This document shows positions 12,423 to 47,823 of a stretch of 64,000 nucleotides of DNA, piece after piece. Both the position numbers and the translations under genes were made by a program. The first letter of the stretch is position 1, and each line of letters starts with the position of its first letter. The notes below the pieces were generated by a model. That model made no database searches and was not told the DNA's origin. It was given only the letters and a program-made list of their open reading frames with translations. The stretch comes from Escherichia coli. GTDB taxonomy: Bacteria > Pseudomonadota > Gammaproteobacteria > Enterobacterales > Enterobacteriaceae. The stretch lies in the NCBI RefSeq assembly GCF_016026235.1, contig NZ_CP065613.1; one strand, written 5' to 3'.

Positions 12423-12498
12423 GGGTCGTTAGCTCAGTTGGTAGAGCAGTTGACTTTTAATCAATTGGTCGCAGGTTCGAATCCTGCACGACCCACCA
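12423..12498 (+). tRNA. lysT: tRNA-Lys (anticodon UUU)
   Basis: GGGTCGTTAGCTCAGTTGGTAGAGCAGTTGACTTTTAATCAATTGGTCGCAGGTTCGAATCCTGCACGACCCACCA; cloverleaf and CCA end. Confidence 0.97.
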
Positions 12499-12525
12499 AT
12501 CGCTAAGGTGGAAGCGGTAGTAAAA

Positions 12526-12598
12526 CGTGAAGGATAACGTTGCATCAGCAACGGCCCGAAGGGCGAGACGAAGTCGAGTCATCCTGCACGACCCACCA
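12526..12598 (+). repeat. spacer repeat copy 1 ending in a duplicated tRNA-Lys 3'-end fragment (..gtcatcctgcacgacccacca)
   Basis: about 72 nt, near-identical to copies at 12815-12885 and 13119-13189; last ~19 nt match the T-arm/acceptor 3' end of tRNA-Lys. Confidence 0.8.
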
Positions 12599-12633
12599 CT
12601 AACATAGTTAGTTGTAGTATCCAGCGTAGTATT

Positions 12634-12709
12634 GGGTGATTAGCTCAGCTGGGAGAGCACCTCCCTTACAAGGAGGGGGTCGGCGGTTCGATCCCGTCAT
12701 CACCCACCA
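12634..12709 (+). tRNA. valT: tRNA-Val (anticodon UAC)
   Basis: GGGTGATTAGCTCAGCTGGGAGAGCACCTCCCTTACAAGGAGGGGGTCGGCGGTTCGATCCCGTCATCACCCACCA. Confidence 0.97.
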
Positions 12710-12711
12710 CC

Positions 12712-12787
12712 GGGTCGTTAGCTCAGTTGGTAGAGCAGTTGACTTTTAATCAATTGGTCGCAGGTTCGAATCCTGCACGACCCACCA
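12712..12787 (+). tRNA. lysW: tRNA-Lys (anticodon UUU)
   Basis: identical to lysT copy. Confidence 0.97.
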
Positions 12788-12814
12788 GTTTTAGCATCGA
12801 AGACAGATGTTAAG

Positions 12815-12885
12815 CGTGTAGGATAACGTTGCGTCAGCAACGGCCCGTAGGGCGAGCGAAGCGAGTCATCCTGCACGACCCACCA
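12815..12885 (+). repeat. spacer repeat copy 2 with tRNA-Lys 3'-end fragment
   Basis: cgtgtaggataacgttgcgtcagcaacggcccgtagggcgagcgaagcgagtcatcctgcacgacccacca. Confidence 0.8.
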
Positions 12886-12936
12886 CTAATTACGGTGGGT
12901 TCGGTGGAAGTAGTTTGTAGTATCCAGCGCAGTATC

Positions 12937-13012
12937 GGGTGATTAGCTCAGCTGGGAGAGCACCTCCCTTACAAGGAGGGGGTCGGCGGTTCGATCCCGT
13001 CATCACCCACCA
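12937..13012 (+). tRNA. valZ: tRNA-Val (anticodon UAC)
   Basis: identical to valT copy. Confidence 0.97.
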
Positions 13013-13015
13013 CTC

Positions 13016-13091
13016 GGGTCGTTAGCTCAGTTGGTAGAGCAGTTGACTTTTAATCAATTGGTCGCAGGTTCGAATCCTGCACGACCCACCA
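13016..13091 (+). tRNA. lysY: tRNA-Lys (anticodon UUU)
   Basis: identical to lysT copy. Confidence 0.97.
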
Positions 13092-13118
13092 ATTTTAACA
13101 TCAAACTCAGATGTTAAG

Positions 13119-13189
13119 CGTGAAGGATAACGTTGCGCCAGCAACGGCCCGAAGGGCGAGCGAAGCGAGTCATCCTGCACGACCCACCA
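13119..13189 (+). repeat. spacer repeat copy 3 with tRNA-Lys 3'-end fragment
   Basis: cgtgaaggataacgttgcgccagcaacggcccgaagggcgagcgaagcgagtcatcctgcacgacccacca. Confidence 0.8.
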
Positions 13190-13237
13190 ATCTTAAAGAT
13201 TGGCCCCGAGTAAAAATCTTTCAGGTAACACCCGTAT

Positions 13238-13313
13238 GGGTCGTTAGCTCAGTTGGTAGAGCAGTTGACTTTTAATCAATTGGTCGCAGGTTCGAATCCT
13301 GCACGACCCACCA
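13238..13313 (+). tRNA. lysZ: tRNA-Lys (anticodon UUU)
   Basis: identical to lysT copy. Confidence 0.97.
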
Positions 13314-13346
13314 TCCTGAATGATTAAAGCAGCATAATCCCGCAAG

Positions 13347-13422
13347 GGGTCGTTAGCTCAGTTGGTAGAGCAGTTGACTTTTAATCAATTGGTCGCAGGT
13401 TCGAATCCTGCACGACCCACCA
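13347..13422 (+). tRNA. lysQ: tRNA-Lys (anticodon UUU)
   Basis: identical to lysT copy. Confidence 0.97.
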
Positions 13423-35652: not shown

Positions 35653-35934
35653 TTAAAGTTCGTGTGCCATCTGGTCTTTTTCGGCGCAGATTTCACTACA
35701 ATATTTGCGTTTCTTTTTCCTCATCATGGTTCCGTGCATGTAAATAAGTTCAGCAGTGTAAGCCTTATCAGGGCTTACTTGTCTGTCACACAGGCCATAA
35801 GCACAGGGAATTAAATCGGGATCACCTTTCTGCTGGAGGGTTTTTTTGATTATCCATAACAATTTTTTGATTCCGGTGTGTGTTATGGTCTGCTGAGGTG
35901 CAGAGGTAAAACAATAATCAAGCATAGGGTTCAT
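35653..35934 (-). CDS. hypothetical zinc-ribbon protein (93 aa)
   Basis: two Cys pairs (CAYGLC ... CSEIC). Confidence 0.4.
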   Translation of the reverse strand: MNPMLDYCFTSAPQQTITHTGIKKLLWIIKKTLQQKGDPDLIPCAYGLCDRQVSPDKAYTAELIYMHGTMMRKKKRKYCSEICAEKDQMAHEL

Positions 35935-35950
35935 ATCCGTAGCTCCATTT

Positions 35951-36505
35951 TTATTTTAAAGAAAGTAATTGTTCCACAGTCATATTTTTAATTGCGCCCC
36001 GGTTAACAAGAGTCCATCCCTGTTTTTCCAGATAAAACCGGAAAGTCTCCAGGGTACAGACCAGTGCGCCATCAGGAACGGTTTCGGTGAATTCGACATT
36101 GCCGAATTTGTCGAAGTGAACAACCAGAGTGCGACCATCACCCGGAATCATCTTGTCAGCAGGTGGGGTGTTATTCTGGCGCAGTTCGGCCTCCATGCGG
36201 TCGAACTCAGCAATGTAGGCTTCCTTGAATGCGGCGGCTTTTTTGCCAGTGAAGCCCATCATCAGGAAAACGAAGCCGTTTTTGGTGATTTGGTACATTG
36301 GGCGTTTTTCGCCTTTGGCGTCGGTATAGGTGACGGGCTTAAAATTAAGCCGGTTAAACTCCGGCGAGCATTCGAGAGTTTCGATCTTCTGAATAACGTT
36401 TTTGTGCATTTTCCGGAAGAACTTCGCAACCGCAACAGACGTAGTGACAGCGCGACCATTTTCGATGGTTACGTCAGGGTGAGAAAGGGTAAGGATAGTA
36501 GCCAT
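35951..36505 (-). CDS. Rha-family phage regulatory protein
   Basis: MATILTLSHPDVTIENGRAVTTSVAVAKFFRKMHKNVIQKIETL... matches Rha domain pattern; GAGG RBS before this Met; ORF is open further upstream to 36799. Confidence 0.5.
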   Translation of the reverse strand: MATILTLSHPDVTIENGRAVTTSVAVAKFFRKMHKNVIQKIETLECSPEFNRLNFKPVTYTDAKGEKRPMYQITKNGFVFLMMGFTGKKAAAFKEAYIAEFDRMEAELRQNNTPPADKMIPGDGRTLVVHFDKFGNVEFTETVPDGALVCTLETFRFYLEKQGWTLVNRGAIKNMTVEQLLSLK

Positions 36506-43422: not shown

Positions 43423-44022
43423 ATGGCACATATACAACTGGTCAAACAAACCTCTTCCGGATTACTTCTCCCGGCGACGCCGGAGAGTTGCGATTTTCTG
43501 CATCAAATCAAAATAGGTGAGTGGATACACGCAGACTTTAAGCGTGTGCGTAACTACGCATTCCACAAGCGTTTTTTCAAACTCCTGCAACTGGGTTTCG
43601 ATTACTGGACTCCGGTCGGTGGGGCGATCACGCCTCGCGAACGAAAACTGGTGTCCGGTTTCGTTGATTACCTGTGTGAATCAGTAGGCCGGGAACATAC
43701 GCCAGCTCTGAGCGAAGCCGCAGAGCAATATCTGAATACAGTTGCGACACGCAGAACCCGTGATACGGCATTGCTAAAGTCGTTTGAGGCTTTCCGCGAG
43801 TGGGTAGCCATTCAGGCCGGATTTTACACCGAGCATTTTTATCCGGACGGTAGCCGTGGGTGTCGGGCGAAATCTATCGCGTTTGCGAATATGGACGAAA
43901 CCGAGTTTCAGCAGGTTTATAAATCTGTACTGAATGTGCTGTGGAACTGGATTCTGTTCCGTAAATTTTCCTCTCCGGAACAAGTCGAAAATGTGGCCGC
44001 GCAGCTGCTGGAGTTTGCGTAA
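43423..44022 (+). CDS. hypothetical nin-region protein (199 aa)
   Basis: GGAGAAAG RBS before MAHIQLVKQT. Confidence 0.45.
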   Translation: MAHIQLVKQTSSGLLLPATPESCDFLHQIKIGEWIHADFKRVRNYAFHKRFFKLLQLGFDYWTPVGGAITPRERKLVSGFVDYLCESVGREHTPALSEAAEQYLNTVATRRTRDTALLKSFEAFREWVAIQAGFYTEHFYPDGSRGCRAKSIAFANMDETEFQQVYKSVLNVLWNWILFRKFSSPEQVENVAAQLLEFA

Positions 44023-44312
44023 TGGTGGATTTACTTAAAGCGGCGCGGGGGCAGATGTGCACCGTCAGAATTCCTGGCTACTGCAATCACGATCCGGAAA
44101 CGTCTGTGCTGGCGCATTACCGACTGGCGGGAACGTGCGGAACAGCGATAAAGCCACACGATATGCAGGCAGCGATTGCCTGTAGCTCGTGCCACGATTT
44201 AATCGACGGGCGGGTAAAAACCAGCGATTACACCAAAGAAGAATTACGCCTGATGCATGCAGAAGGTGTTTTTCGCACACAAGAAATCTGGAGAAAGGAG
44301 GGATATTTATGA
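44022..44312 (+). CDS. YbcO-like (DUF1364) putative nuclease
   Basis: MVDLLKAARGQMCTVRIPGYCNHDPETSVLAHYRLAGTCGTAIKPHDMQAAIACSSCHDLIDGR resembles DLP12 YbcO. Confidence 0.6.
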   Translation: MVDLLKAARGQMCTVRIPGYCNHDPETSVLAHYRLAGTCGTAIKPHDMQAAIACSSCHDLIDGRVKTSDYTKEELRLMHAEGVFRTQEIWRKEGYL

Positions 44313-44863
44313 TTTACCCAACGAATACAGGAAAAAGCGGAGAACACCTTCGTCTCACCACGCTGGAAAGTGTCTGGATTCAGGGAAAACTACGTATGTG
44401 GGGGCGCTGGTCGTATATTGGTGGCGGTAAGACGGGGAATATGTTTAACCTGATGTTGACCTCTAAAAAGCTGACAAAAACGGCAATTAACGAGGCGCTC
44501 CGGAGGATGAAAAAAGCAGGTCTGAACAAGTCTGAACTTGAGGCTTTTTTGCGGGATATGATTAACGGTAAGCAAAAGAGCTGGCTGGCGCATTGTACTG
44601 ATGCAGAGGCGTTATGTATTGATCGGGTCATAAGTGAGGTGCTGGCAGAGCATCCAGGATTGATTAGCGTCCTTCGGCAACGGTATGAGGGGCGGGGGAT
44701 GACCAAACGCAAAATGGCTGAACTGCTGAATGATGCACACCCGAAATGGAGTTTAAGAACCTGTGAAAGACGCATTGAGCATTGGCTAAAGGTGGCAGAA
44801 TTTATTTTGTACAAACCAATGGTTATGGCTTTTGGTATAGAGAAAAAAGTTATTGCTTTTTGA
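44309..44863 (+). CDS. late-gene antiterminator Q-like protein
   Basis: AGGAGG RBS before MIYPTNTGKSGEHL; located immediately upstream of a terminator, tRNAs and lysis genes. Confidence 0.5.
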   Translation: MIYPTNTGKSGEHLRLTTLESVWIQGKLRMWGRWSYIGGGKTGNMFNLMLTSKKLTKTAINEALRRMKKAGLNKSELEAFLRDMINGKQKSWLAHCTDAEALCIDRVISEVLAEHPGLISVLRQRYEGRGMTKRKMAELLNDAHPKWSLRTCERRIEHWLKVAEFILYKPMVMAFGIEKKVIAF

Positions 44864-44937
44864 CGTAAAAACTGCTTCAATTCTTGTACGCTTCGCAAAG
44901 CTGTACCGCGAGGCGAATAGCAGACATGGACATTTGA

Positions 44938-44967
44938 AAGAGCCCGCTTTATGCGGGTTTTTTTATA
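44938..44967 (+). terminator. rho-independent terminator downstream of Q (tR'-like)
   Basis: agcccgc-ttta-tgcgggt followed by 7 T. Confidence 0.7.
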
Positions 44968-45052
44968 CCTGAAAAACGGCACAGGACGTTAAACGTGCTG
45001 GTGGTCAGATGAGTTTGCAGATGTGATGACATATGGTTATTATTCTGCCTCC

Positions 45053-45129
45053 GGCCCTTTAGCTCAGTTGGTCAGAGCGAGCGACTCATAATCGCCAGGT
45101 CGCTGGTTCAAGTCCAGCAAGGGCCACCA
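45053..45129 (+). tRNA. tRNA-Ile2 (anticodon CAU, lysidine-type; close relative of E. coli ileX)
   Basis: GGCCCTTTAGCTCAGTTGGTCAGAGCGAGCGACTCATAATCGCCAGGTCGCTGGTTCAAGTCCAGCAAGGGCCACCA; cannot fully exclude Met by sequence alone. Confidence 0.8.
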
Positions 45130-45130
45130 A

Positions 45131-45207
45131 CCACCACTAGCTCATCCGGATAGAGCATCAACCTTCTAAGTTGACGGTGCGAGGTTCGAGTCCTCGGTGG
45201 TGGGCCA
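45131..45207 (+). tRNA. tRNA-Arg (anticodon UCU)
   Basis: CCACCACTAGCTCATCCGGATAGAGCATCAACCTTCTAAGTTGACGGTGCGAGGTTCGAGTCCTCGGTGGTGGGCCA; cloverleaf folds, C1-G72 pair. Confidence 0.75.
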
Positions 45208-45209
45208 GC

Positions 45210-45285
<76 letters not shown>

Positions 45286-45288
45286 TAT

Positions 45289-45363
<75 letters not shown>

Positions 45364-45810
45364 GCGAGATTTGAGACGAAGGTTGTTATTTGCACTGACA
45401 CAATATTGTGTGGGAATGTCTGACTCCTTACCATCTCCTGTTCTGTGATGTTGTTTTGTTGCAGTTCCAGTGCTCTTTTTTCAGCACCAGAATGGTGCAT
45501 TGTCGGTCAGGTTACGTAGTGAACCTCTGGCAGGGGACTGATAATGCATCATTCTGGTGTTGTAAATATCTCTTCGGACAACTTACAAAATATTCTAAGC
45601 AAACCCCGGGAACACACTCTTAACTGCCTTGGCTGGCGGTTTTTTGTACAGTGCTCGGTATGTGTGAGCTGGAAATCAGATTTTGCATGGACTGGAATCA
45701 TGCTGTTATTTAGGGGCGAAGAACTGGCTTTTTCTTCCGCCTTCTCACCAGTAATGATTAGAAAAATAATGAAATGCCCCCTCCGGGGAGGAGGACCGTA
45801 GAAAAAAGGA

Positions 45811-45867
45811 CCCGCCAGCAAAAACATTGGGGATGAACAGCTTTCGCTACTCAGATTGCTGGCGGGT
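45811..45867. other. 11-bp perfect inverted repeat with about 35-nt loop in noncoding DNA
   Basis: cccgccagcaa ... ttgctggcggg. Confidence 0.6.
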
Positions 45868-45974
45868 AAAGTTCCTCATGAATTAAGAATGCTACGCGAT
45901 CTTTTTTAATGGAAATGAAAATTATTGTCAATTAGACGTGCGTGTTTTTTCATACAATATTGGTAAAGGTGATT

Positions 45975-46008
45975 CAGGCCATCAGAGTTTTGCTGATGGC
46001 CTTTTTTC
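45975..46008 (+). terminator. rho-independent terminator just upstream of the holin gene
   Basis: ggccatcag-agttttg-ctgatggcc followed by tttttt. Confidence 0.7.
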
Positions 46009-46042
46009 TTTCCGATAGCACAGGTCTGTCGGGGGGCGGGAT

Positions 46043-46258
46043 ATGTATCAGATGGAAAAAATATCAACAGGCATTGCCTACGGCACCTCCGCCGGCAGTG
46101 CCGGCTACTGGTTTTTGCAGTGGTTGGATCAGGTCAGTCCATCACAGTGGGCTGCGATTGGTGTGCTGGGAAGTCTGCTTCTGGGGCTTCTGACTTATCT
46201 GACGAATCTGTATTTCAAAATAAGAGAAGATAAGCGTAAGGCTGCGAGAGGTGAATAA
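46043..46258 (+). CDS. S: phage-21-type pinholin S with dual start
   Basis: [71 protein letters not shown]; Met1 and Met4 give antiholin/holin starts; two TM segments. Confidence 0.85.
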
Positions 46259-46755
46259 TGTCGCCATCATTACGCAAGGCTGTTGCAGTTGCTATTGGTG
46301 GCGGGGCTGTTGCTATAGCATCTGTGTTAATCACTGGCCCAGGTGGTAACGATGGTCTGGAAGGTGTCAGCTACATACCATACAAAGATATCATTGGTGT
46401 ATGGACTGTATGTCACGGACACACCGGAAAAGACATCATGCCTGGTAAAACGTATACCGAAGCAGAATGCAAAGCTCTCCTGAATAAAGACCTTGCCACT
46501 GTCGCCAGACAAATTAACCCGTACATCAAAGTCGATATACCGGAAACAACGCGCGGCGCTCTTTACTCGTTCGTTTACAACGTGGGCGCTGGCAATTTCA
46601 GAACATCGACGCTTCTTCGCAAAATAAACCAGGGCGATATCAAAGGCGCATGTGACCAGCTACGTCGCTGGACATATGCTGGCGGTAAGCAATGGAAAGG
46701 GCTGATGACCCGTCGTGAGATTGAGCGTGAAGTCTGTTTGTGGGGGCAGCAATGA
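46258..46755 (+). CDS. R: SAR endolysin (lysozyme with N-terminal signal-arrest-release segment)
   Basis: weakly hydrophobic Gly/Ala-rich N-terminal segment [20 protein letters not shown] then lysozyme-like domain; ATG overlaps holin stop. Confidence 0.8.
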
Positions 46756-47222
46756 GCAGAGTCACCGCGATTATCTCCGCTCTGGTTATCTGCATCATCG
46801 TCTGCCTGTCATGGGCTGTTAATCATTACCGTGATAACGCCATTACCTACAAAGAGCAGCGCGACAAAAACGCAAGAGAACTGAAGCTGGCGAACGCAAC
46901 CATTACTGACATGCAGCAGCGCCAGCGTGCTGCTGATGCACTCGATGCTAAATACACGAAGGAGTTAGCCAATGCGAAAGCTGAAAATGATGCTCTTCGG
47001 CGCAAGCTTGATAATGGTGGTTGGGTGCTCGTCAAAGGAAAATGCCCTGTGCCATCCTCAGCCGAAACCTCCAGCGCCTCCGGCATGGGCAATGATGCCA
47101 CCGTCGAACTCTCTCCAGTTGCTGGACGAAACGTTCTCGGTATCCGGGACGGAATCATCAGCGACCAGACAGCATTGAGAATGCTTCAGGAGTACATCAG
47201 GATCCAATGCCTTGGGGGGTAG
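46752..47222 (+). CDS. Rz: i-spanin Rz
   Basis: [24 protein letters not shown]-terminal TM, coiled-coil periplasmic domain; follows endolysin. Confidence 0.8.
46972..47178 (+). CDS. Rz1: o-spanin Rz1, embedded in +1 frame within Rz
   Basis: [21 protein letters not shown] lipobox, proline-rich mature part ([18 protein letters not shown]). Confidence 0.8.
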
Positions 47223-47310: not shown

Positions 47311-47823
47311 TTAGCTAAAAAAAGGCAACACGAAGCTAAAACTACCAACATAAAGTGCTGACCAGCTAGCAGCTGAAATCAGACTCACTGTATACACTTT
47401 CACTGGATGAAGTTGCAACATTCCTGCCACCAAAGGAGCAATATAACGCAGCACGGCGATAAAGCGCGAAGTGAAAAGTATTGACACAGAGTTATTTTGC
47501 AACTGAAGGCGAACCCGTTCTATTGTATTGGAACGGCTCGATATTATACATGCAAGTTGAGGGATATGCCCAATTATTATACCAAGATGGTAATTAACGA
47601 TAGTACCGCACCATGCGCCACTCATGACCGTGATTCCAGCTTCCCATGGTGAAAGAGTCGTCTTGCTGACTGTAATTACAGTGGCCATCATAATTGATGC
47701 TGGTGGCAATATCGCCGAAATGAGTAAAGTGGATTTTGTGAACGCTATTATAAAAAGAAGCCCCCATAGGCGATATGGATGAAGTACAAAATAGTTCATC
47801 AAAGCATTTATCCACTCCATCAA
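47311..47823 (-). CDS. YqaA/DedA-like inner-membrane protein (cargo gene between lysis and terminase)
   Basis: 170-aa polytopic protein; segment LISAILPPASIMMATVITVSKTTLSPWEAGITVMSGAWCGTIVNYHLG resembles the YqaA TLLPGNSEVVLVAM...GNSLGG region; opposite strand to flanking late genes. Confidence 0.45.
   Translation of the reverse strand: MMEWINALMNYFVLHPYRLWGLLFIIAFTKSTLLISAILPPASIMMATVITVSKTTLSPWEAGITVMSGAWCGTIVNYHLGIIIGHIPQLACIISSRSNTIERVRLQLQNNSVSILFTSRFIAVLRYIAPLVAGMLQLHPVKVYTVSLISAASWSALYVGSFSFVLPFFS

Follow-up and report, generated by a model that had tools for sequence, protein, structure and literature searches.

A non-coding mosaic spacer between the tRNA genes and the lysis genes of an Escherichia coli prophage, with predicted RNA-level signals

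The interval before the holin gene joins two recombined modules

In the late region of a lambdoid-type prophage, within a 64-kb window of Escherichia coli DNA (the whole stretch analyzed, 64,000 nucleotides of contig NZ_CP065613.1), an interval of 679 bp (positions 45364 to 46042) separates four tRNA genes from the lysis genes. We interpret this interval as a non-coding mosaic spacer at the "moron" site, composed of two recombined modules that carry RNA-level signals, an explanation that as a whole we advance with moderate confidence. BLAST against the fetched relatives (loci numbered with the prefix L) divides the interval cleanly into two modules with separate distributions, and the whole 679 bp at an identity of at least 98.8% is found in only 8 of 5426 complete E. 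coli genomes. The gene order is a Q-like gene, the four tRNA genes, the interval and the lysis genes, with a lysozyme gene and an Rz-type lysis gene 3' of the holin gene. The features of this setting are as follows.

44309-44860, + strand: Q-like antiterminator gene (phrog_753 match, E = 9e-80; stop codon 44863)
45053-45363, + strand: four tRNA genes, CAT (Ile in RefSeq), Arg-TCT, Thr-TGT and Gly-TCC (ARAGORN, Rfam and the RefSeq annotation of the near-identical locus L001)
45364-45648, + strand: module A, about 285 nt, the tRNA operon's conserved and structured 3' trailer
45649-45662, no strand: module A/module B junction, a mosaic recombination joint (module A similarity stops at 45648, module B similarity begins at 45663)
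45663-46042, no strand: module B, conserved holin-leader module, 85 to 87% identical in 1450 of the 5426 E. coli genomes
46043-46258, + strand: class II holin of 71 amino acids (aa), first lysis gene and right border of the interval (list of open reading frames [ORFs]; "class II holin family protein" in the RefSeq annotation of L001)

The relatives of module A, at about 70 to 76% identity, always stand 3' of tRNA-Thr/tRNA-Gly and precede quite different lysis cassettes, and those of module B, at 85 to 88% identity, are always followed by the class II holin gene and have variable upstream sequence. The slot upstream of the holin gene is itself mosaic, as seen in a survey of 25 distinct sequences that precede a holin of the window's type, and the modules of the interval assort independently of Q. 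The initial annotation had compared the interval to the position of the toxin genes in Shiga toxin (Stx) phages, and this analogy is correct, the interval being the moron site downstream of PR' (Tree et al. 2014, PMC4104026). The arrangement is of an ordinary general kind, though incompletely described.

Module A is a conserved folded trailer of the tRNA operon

Module A follows tRNA-Thr/tRNA-Gly in the loci L003 to L006 and L326 and is present in 399 of the 5426 E. coli genomes. DH5alpha is among the carriers, with the module A region at 2580300-2580730 of NZ_CP026085.1, where the module again stands after tRNA-Thr/tRNA-Gly and downstream of a DUF1133 Q-like gene of the window's Q family; the prophage concerned is probably phi80. 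Searching the phage genome collection by megablast gave no match to the interval, and the distant mode returned only SerU-LTIIb and one other phage, both for module A. Three features define the unit to which module A belongs.

45014-45043, + strand: sigma-70-like promoter, TTTGCA-18 nt-TATTAT (scan call), ending 10 nt before the first tRNA
45478-45566, + strand: long imperfect hairpin with a stem of about 24 to 27 bp in the window (31-nt arms, 84% complementary)
45622-45647, + strand: predicted intrinsic terminator ending module A (scan: stem 45622-45641, then T6)

The promoter, called by a sigma-70 scan with spacers of 16 to 18 nt, is probably the tRNA operon's own, judging by its sequence and position. 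L003 retains the promoter's hexamers around a spacer of diverged sequence, and there the scan reports TTGCAA-17-TATTAT at the corresponding position. The terminator stem, ACYGCC/GGCGGT with a T run of 6 to 8, is kept in 12 relatives whose loops differ, and the site is also called in L326 and L003. Because the promoter hexamers and the trailer terminator are conserved and the module is linked to the tRNA genes, we consider the promoter, the tRNAs, the trailer and the terminator to be one autonomous unit. The best-scoring sigma-70-like site of the region is a different one, TCGGCA-16 nt-TATAAT (10 of 12 matches, 45277-45304), which lies across the tRNA-Thr/tRNA-Gly boundary; sites of this type are found at the same boundary in L326 (2376-2403) and L003 (2895-2922). 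It may be a by-product of tRNA sequence, or an internal promoter for tRNA-Gly and the trailer.

The full-length alignment of module A with its 12 relatives gave a consensus fold of 63 pairs, in which the 5' domain is closed by GCACUG/CAGUGC and the hairpin is preceded by a U-run; folded as a single sequence, module A has z = -3.7. The hairpin at 45478-45566 is the strongest in the interval, and it was missing from the structures listed in the initial annotation, as was the second + strand terminator-like site at 45622-45647; the observation was otherwise mostly right. On the + strand the hairpin folds at -48 kcal/mol (z = -9.3) and on the - strand at -31 kcal/mol, a difference of 17 kcal/mol in favor of the + strand. 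By gathering variants with a degenerate anchor in the 3' arm, we obtained 50 distinct sequences, which share a consensus of 32 pairs. Among them 98.1% of cells are paired, compared with 33 to 58% when the partner is slid by 1 to 3 columns, and double-sided changes occur at 6 pairs in 28 cells. In the shuffle test, none of 500 shuffles reached the observed value on four of five measures, and 5 of 500 did so on the fifth. Many of the pairs alternate between G-C, A-U and G-U and would mismatch on the - strand. On account of these strand-specific G-U pairs and the greater + strand stability, the hairpin is best described as a feature of the + strand RNA. The alignments thus support module A as a conserved folded RNA whose hairpin is backed by covariation, and we infer that the hairpin would serve as an RNase III or stability element.

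No described family accounts for module A in the searches that we made. Rfam returned only sub-threshold eukaryotic microRNA-precursor models at 45476-45568, which reflect generic hairpin likeness, and no curated covariance model of Rfam 15 gave a family match. The nearest parallel is 3'ETS-leuZ, a 3' external transcribed spacer of a tRNA operon that acts as an RNA in its own right. Like it, module A is a trailer at the 3' end of a tRNA operon, terminated by prediction, and 3' processing of the tRNAs would release it; unlike it, module A is much longer (about 285 nt), is dominated by the long hairpin and has no known or predicted target or sponge activity. 3'ETS-leuZ appears as 3'ESTleuZ in table S2 of PMC8550237. 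Repeats are also found downstream of tRNA arrays in other loci (L245 2740-3420; L002 2730-2880; L005 and L006, in the 3' part of module A), comprising GGGAGGCACCCGGCACCATGCA, CCCCTCCGGAGAGGGG hairpins and GGTGAATCCCCC-like segments. The GGTGAATCCCCC-like segments resemble tRNA T-arms, and some motifs of the set occur twice per locus. The repeated motifs GGGAGGCACCCGGCACCATGCA, CCCCTCCGGAGAGGGG and GGTGAATCCCCC may be decayed tRNA genes or further structured RNAs.

Module B contains a candidate antisense small RNA gene

A perfect 11-bp inverted repeat had been noted in module B, and the repeat is indeed there, with 12 bp rather than 11 (ACCCGCCAGCAA, 45810-45821, and TTGCTGGCGGGT, 45856-45867); a perfect stem of at least 12 bp arose in 1 of 300 dinucleotide shuffles of the interval. 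From its sequence context the stem fits best as the probable terminator of an antisense small RNA (sRNA) of about 100 nt, with the following elements.

45903-45931, - strand: candidate antisense sRNA promoter, TTGACA (45931-45926), 17 nt, TAAAAA (45908-45903), predicted start at about 45896
45799-45897, - strand: candidate antisense (convergent) sRNA of about 100 nt, with putative ends, the 3' end being the 12-bp stem followed by UCCUUUUUUCU

On the - strand the stem encloses an inner hairpin with a GAAA loop (45834-45853), in which G-U pairs are possible on that strand only, and the candidate folds at -34.2 kcal/mol (z = -3.4 in the window, z = -4.8 in L002). TTGACA stands about 30 nt upstream of the predicted start. 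Together with the A-rich -10 element it is invariant across five clades, whereas the flanks vary, and the scan of L002 calls TTGACA-18-AAAAAT at the same place. The promoter pattern occurs a single time in the 64-kb window, where 0.17 matches would be expected by chance. Across the clades of module B, conservation peaks at 45797-45874 (0.7 to 0.9 invariant) and drops to 0.2 to 0.45 past the U-run. An antisense sRNA gene at this position is plausible on these features.

Several observations weigh against this interpretation. In the window the -10 element, TAAAAA, lacks the usual final T, present in the other clades one base further along, and the standard scan does not call the antisense promoter there. 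Module B is found in only about 5 close clades of 85 to 100% identity, which are too alike for the 12-bp stem to display any compensatory change; the stem variant of L072 fits the - strand, and that of the plasmid remnant L007 fits the + strand. The stem folds nearly as well on the + strand (-31.7 versus -34.2 kcal/mol). Module B copies reside in intact prophages, in remnants beside iss on more than 550 conjugative plasmids and in remnants beside pap on chromosomes, and since many of these are clonal remnants travelling with iss or pap, their abundance is not independent evidence of selection. Copies lie, for example, at 574765-575143 of IHE3034 and at 35905-36248 of pZJ3920-1. For the interpretation as a whole, all RNAs of the interval are predictions, and neither the scan nor the alignment of Q relatives identified the exact hexamers of the late promoter that we place upstream of the tRNA genes below.

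The strongest alternative places the action of the 12-bp stem and of the remainder of module B on the + strand alone, as a leader structure of the late mRNA with no antisense gene; the stem could then be an RNase III/RNase E processing site or a stabilizer of the lysis transcript, and the - strand TTGACA would be an incidental piece of the near-palindrome ATTGTCAAT. Module B has to be traversed by the late transcript in any event, the + strand fold is itself stable (z = -3.0), and the plasmid variant L007 keeps the stem through a G-U pair that forms on the + strand only. What speaks for the antisense gene is that the U-run follows the stem on the - strand only, that the G-U pairs of the GAAA-loop hairpin belong to the same strand, that conservation ends at the - strand U-run, that the spacing of the -35 and -10 elements is kept across clades, and that validated antisense sRNAs occupy the same slot elsewhere. 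We regard the + strand alternative as unlikely. Somewhat less likely still is that module B, perhaps with the linkers of module A, consists of functionless remains of deleted morons that hitch-hike with the lysis cassette, iss or pap, only the terminators being of consequence. The mosaic nature of the region agrees with such an origin, as do the low diversity of module B, its hundreds of clonal remnants beside iss on plasmids or beside pap, and its absence outside the E. coli lineage in the species-representative scan. The conservation of module B is uneven, however, and tracks the predicted unit, and the compensatory changes of the module A hairpin over 50 variants are unexplained by hitch-hiking.

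That scan, in which a conserved 19-mer was sought in one genome of each species, gave only four chance matches in unrelated metagenome-assembled genomes, and a 16-mer scan of viral contigs recovered the same three or four module B clades. In an Rfam scan of 44000-47000 on both strands with E up to 1, the interval gave no matches other than generic hairpin ones. Three further ideas were set aside. The duplex energy of a trans target at the holin start was, for the initiation region, no better than 42% of background windows; the hairpin CCCCCTCCGGGGAGGAGG (45777-45794), considered as a second terminator, is not conserved in relatives; and K-12 DLP12 (upstream of essD) and UTI89 at the DLP12 site were uninformative as comparisons, their modules being different or absent.

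About 558 plasmids besides pZJ3920-1 (L007 3001-3344) carry module B and the candidate antisense unit beside iss, on plasmids of the ColV type; in the plasmid copies the holin and lysozyme genes are deleted, only Rz/Rz1 fragments are left, and the pre-holin terminator shows decay. In the window, the 3' half of the module A terminator (TTGGCTGGCGG, 45629-45639) has 91% complementarity with the 12-bp stem's 5' arm (CCGCCAGCAAA, 45812-45822). The TTGGCTGGCGG/CCGCCAGCAAA pairing could form between the sense trailer and the antisense candidate, or within the late mRNA.

The antisense candidate resembles prophage small RNAs of the same slot in position and layout

The closest parallels of the antisense candidate are PasA and PasC, Hfq-dependent prophage sRNAs of the enteropathogenic E. 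coli strain E2348/69 (Pearl Mizrahi et al. 2021, PMC8550237; Zhu, Shabalina and Storz 2026, bioRxiv 10.64898/2026.05.13.724894). Both these RNAs and the candidate are located directly upstream of the class II holin/RrrD cassette and are opposed to the late operon (in the window 45799-45931 on the - strand, with the holin gene from 46043), and both have a + strand terminator between the sRNA gene and the holin gene. The TTGACAA of PasA/PasC aligns with that of the window, the mapped 5' end of PasA lying 30 nt downstream of it, and GCCAGC(A) is found in the 5' arm of the terminator stem, the site of the published PasA seed. The 3' stem of the window candidate reads ACCC-GCCAGCAA...UUGCUGGC-GGGU and is followed by UCCUUUUUU, so that it has both the GCCAGC(A) seed and the U-tract; the 7-mer common to the PasA seed and the candidate was noticed after the fact. 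In length, too, PasA and PasC (about 80 to 85 nt) are similar to the candidate (about 100 nt). The terminator loop of the candidate is much larger, 34 nt with an inner hairpin.

Membership of the PasA/PasC family was considered for the candidate and rejected, the local alignments not being significant and the covariance model being negative. Smith-Waterman scores were 14 to 17 against a shuffle mean of 13 to 15, with 244 of 1000 and 435 of 1000 shuffles scoring as high or higher, and a PasA/PasC covariance model built from 11 variants gave no match at the window candidate and 13.6 bits (E = 0.94) at its L002 ortholog. By analogy, the candidate may work like the PasA/PasC-type RNAs, and we do not file it as a member of their family. 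The published 5' end of PasA (position 743499 of the record; L074 3000-3035 corresponds to 743499-743534) lies 30 nt downstream of a perfect - strand TTGACA, a spacing that fits a primary transcription start. The 2026 preprint suggests instead that this end arises from cleavage of a longer transcript (bioRxiv 10.64898/2026.05.13.724894).

PapR, an Hfq- and LRP-dependent sRNA of the uropathogenic E. coli strain UTI89 (Khandige et al. 2015, PMC4546395), is a second parallel, its gene likewise lying in antisense orientation, with a prophage tRNA array on one side and a class II holin gene on the other. It is longer (about 180 nt) and unrelated in sequence to the window candidate, local alignment against shuffles not being significant; the window is without PapR and has module A in its place. 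In the L002-type prophages of ExPEC (E. coli that are pathogenic outside the intestine), a PapR homolog stands just left of module B (L002 2886-2990, - strand; alignment score 115, reached by 0 of 2000 shuffles). In ATCC 11775, PapR (L245 2530-2709) is antisense between the tRNA array and the class II holin gene, and on this position we count PapR as a convergent sRNA of the moron site. In the PapR paper (PMC4546395), the words "phage" and "prophage" do not occur in the main text, and the prophage location is not discussed in the searched text.

In prophages of enterohemorrhagic E. coli, pairs of convergent sRNAs have been described at the moron site on the 3' side of PR', and they include the anti-sRNAs AsxR and AgvB (Tree et al. 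2014, PMC4104026). The window shares with them the slot downstream of Q/PR' and upstream of the conserved late genes, as well as the facing terminated units: the + strand terminator at 45647 faces the - strand stem and U-run at 45867-45800, and such facing of + and - terminators is also present in L326, L003 and L002. AsxR and AgvB differ in length, at 51 to 60 nt versus about 100 nt for the window candidate, and no homology to them, whose conserved 3' region is about 42 nt long, was found: no Rfam family, AsxR and AgvB included, gave a match on either strand with E up to 1. In L326 and L003, whose sequences are unrelated, the same three-part layout is found, namely a + strand terminator, a facing - strand terminator and a pre-holin + strand terminator. 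As the window shows this layout too with unrelated sequences, it seems that what is kept is the layout (a terminated sense RNA faced by an antisense unit, with a pre-holin terminator) and not any one sequence.

Terminators of the late region and the probable position of the late promoter

The strong terminator that had been noted before the holin gene is present as described, with a stem at 45976-46002 of 10 pairs (6 G-C) followed by TTTTTTCTTTC. With it belong two features that we place upstream of the tRNA genes.

45976-46011, + strand: strong intrinsic terminator (predicted), the stem ending 40 nt before the holin start codon
44850-44940, + strand: conserved block spanning the Q stop codon and the sequence just past it, probable late promoter and Q-utilization region (47 distinct Q-relative loci)
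44941-44966, + strand: tR'-like intrinsic terminator of a predicted short leader RNA of about 80 nt (hairpin and U-run, fold z = -3.9; stem kept with changed bases in Q relatives)

The pre-holin terminator folds at -22.7 kcal/mol (z = -4.1) and is identical in all intact-prophage clades. Terminator-like sites within 150 nt of the holin gene are found in 15 of the 25 distinct unrelated upstream modules, compared with 55 of 460 random segments (160 nt each, drawn from the same loci). Because it lies 40 nt before the holin gene and recurs in unrelated modules, it would act as a pre-lysis insulator and not as the promoter-proximal end of a leader. At both 45976-46011 and 45622-45647 a G+C-rich hairpin is directly followed by a U-run and kept in relatives; for these two sites and for 44941-44966, termination is predicted from such sequence features. 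The 3' arm and U-run of the pre-holin terminator (45993-46017) are 72% complementary to holin codons 2 to 9 (46046-46070), a segment that includes the second in-frame ATG of the MYQM dual-start motif. This pairing might affect start-codon choice on read-through mRNA, or might be a chance pairing of a T-run with an A-run.

The initial annotation had preferred to see in the interval a late promoter (TTGTCA/TACAAT), a Q-utilization site and a short transcript ending at 45976-46011, as in phages 21 and 82, and had offered a structured non-coding RNA as an alternative. The alternative has held up, in the covarying hairpin and the candidate sRNA gene, and the preferred reading has not. Both hexamers are present (45925-45930 and 45953-45958), with the strong terminator about 20 to 50 nt downstream, but they are separated by 22 nt, they are not called as a pair by the promoter scan with its 16- to 18-nt spacers, and the -10 element is not conserved, the TACAAT of the window being replaced by TACATG in all the other clades. 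Transcription from this pair would yield hardly more than the terminator hairpin. Moreover, a Q-linked block with its own terminator lies directly after the Q gene, upstream of the tRNAs, and we consider a late promoter inside the interval very improbable.

By comparing 47 distinct Q-relative loci, we found that the Q-linked conserved part is limited to about 75 nt after the Q stop codon and the terminator at 44941-44966, with divergence right after the terminator. Since this block and its terminator sit at 44850-44966, the late promoter and the Q-utilization region are probably located there, at about 44850-44966 upstream of the tRNA genes, as far as conservation can place them. Prophage late-leader RNAs are known, among them lambda 6S RNA and IsrK of Salmonella Gifsy-1. 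An IsrK-like match at 44890-44963 (19.9 bits, E = 0.28, below the Rfam gathering score of 50 bits) is the only such signal in the region scanned, sub-threshold as it is, and it falls in the Q-linked block, outside the interval. StxS of Stx phages is likewise a short PR'-tR' leader RNA (PMC7547250). The window does have a predicted unit of this kind, which follows the Q gene directly (about 44888-44966); it differs from the reported proposal in lying outside the interval and upstream of the tRNAs. In L001 (FDAARGOS_943), the closest E. coli relative, whose copy of the interval spans 2081334-2082012 of NZ_CP065615.1, an IS1 element at 1831-2528 of the locus separates the Q-like gene from the tRNA array. 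It interrupts the presumed late promoter/leader and should cut the lysis genes of that strain off from Q control.

Open reading frames of the interval are short and not conserved

The statement that the interval has no convincing ORF proved accurate: it contains only short overlapping ORFs, none of them conserved. The six ORFs of 61 to 92 aa that were searched had no family match in PHROG and NCBIfam. In the alignments with relatives, ORFs of at least 25 aa were intact in 0 of 11, 0 of 11, 0 of 4 and 1 of 4 cases, and a 17-aa ORF (45833-45886, + strand) was intact in 2 of 4 relatives. The two longest ORFs, of 85 aa (+ strand) and 92 aa (- strand), straddle the junction of modules that occur apart elsewhere. 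RefSeq annotates no feature under the full-length match in any of the 8 E. coli genomes carrying it. A conserved protein gene, named beforehand in the initial annotation as the finding that would overturn its reading, was looked for in the related loci and not found. A small ORF within the hairpin or the stem was tried and rejected (the 17-aa MNSFRYSDCWRVKFLMN, or a 43-aa frame from the ATG at 45498), its differences from relatives being all non-synonymous or frame-shifting.

That the interval encodes one or more small proteins is hardly credible: RefSeq has a 63-aa coding sequence under module B in L002-type prophages and one of 80 aa under module A in L004, but the window has ATT as the start codon of the 63-aa frame, which is cut short there after 27 codons by a 1-nt insertion, an 8-nt indel displaces the L004 frame, which also extends across the terminator, and no ORF of the interval is intact across clades or has a family match. 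The RefSeq "hypothetical proteins" in question, WP_157911611.1 (L002 3166-3357, over module B) and WP_001695986.1 (L004 3169-3408, over module A), show no reading-frame conservation and are probably artefacts of annotation, not genes.

Proposed regulation of the lysis genes

According to our model, in the lysogen transcription from the late promoter would stop at 44966, and transcription of the self-contained tRNA operon from the promoter at 45014-45043 would end at 45647 and leave a stable structured trailer RNA of about 285 nt. The antisense unit (from about 45896 to 45799, driven by the TTGACA at 45931-45926) would be transcribed against the late operon, towards the trailer, and the inverted repeat would be the terminator stem of this antisense RNA. 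Any polymerase that leaked through would be halted at 46011, before the holin gene; in this way the three + strand terminators (44941-44966, 45622-45647 and 45976-46011) would keep ordinary RNA polymerase off the lysis genes. After induction, Q-modified polymerase from the late promoter would read through all three. A bolder version is possible, in which module A is an undescribed and widespread trailer-derived phage RNA, its hairpin being an RNase III-controlled switch or a trans regulator or sponge, and forms with the facing GCCAGCA-seed antisense RNA a two-RNA lock coupling tRNA expression in the lysogen with the silencing of the lysis genes and with the control of host mRNAs; we offer this version tentatively and consider it doubtful.

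The slot between Q and the holin gene of lambdoid prophages carries toxins and virulence-linked sRNAs (AsxR, AgvB, PasA/C, PapR and StxS). To these the window would add two elements without a described family, the tRNA-trailer RNA with its covariation-backed hairpin and the candidate antisense RNA, which many ExPEC prophages carry before the holin gene and which ColV-type plasmids carry beside iss. If expressed, both would join the list of prophage regulatory RNAs and would help to explain how morons are expressed in lysogens without triggering lysis.

Two neighboring features of the window are recorded here. A host array of 7 tRNA-Lys/tRNA-Val genes (12423-13422), some 30 kb upstream of the late region of the prophage, has an arrangement that we take to be the enterobacterial lysT-valT operon, and this points to a chromosome of E. 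coli/Shigella. Between the Rz lysis gene and the terminase region, a gene for a DedA-family membrane protein (47311-47823, - strand) has the look of a separate moron.

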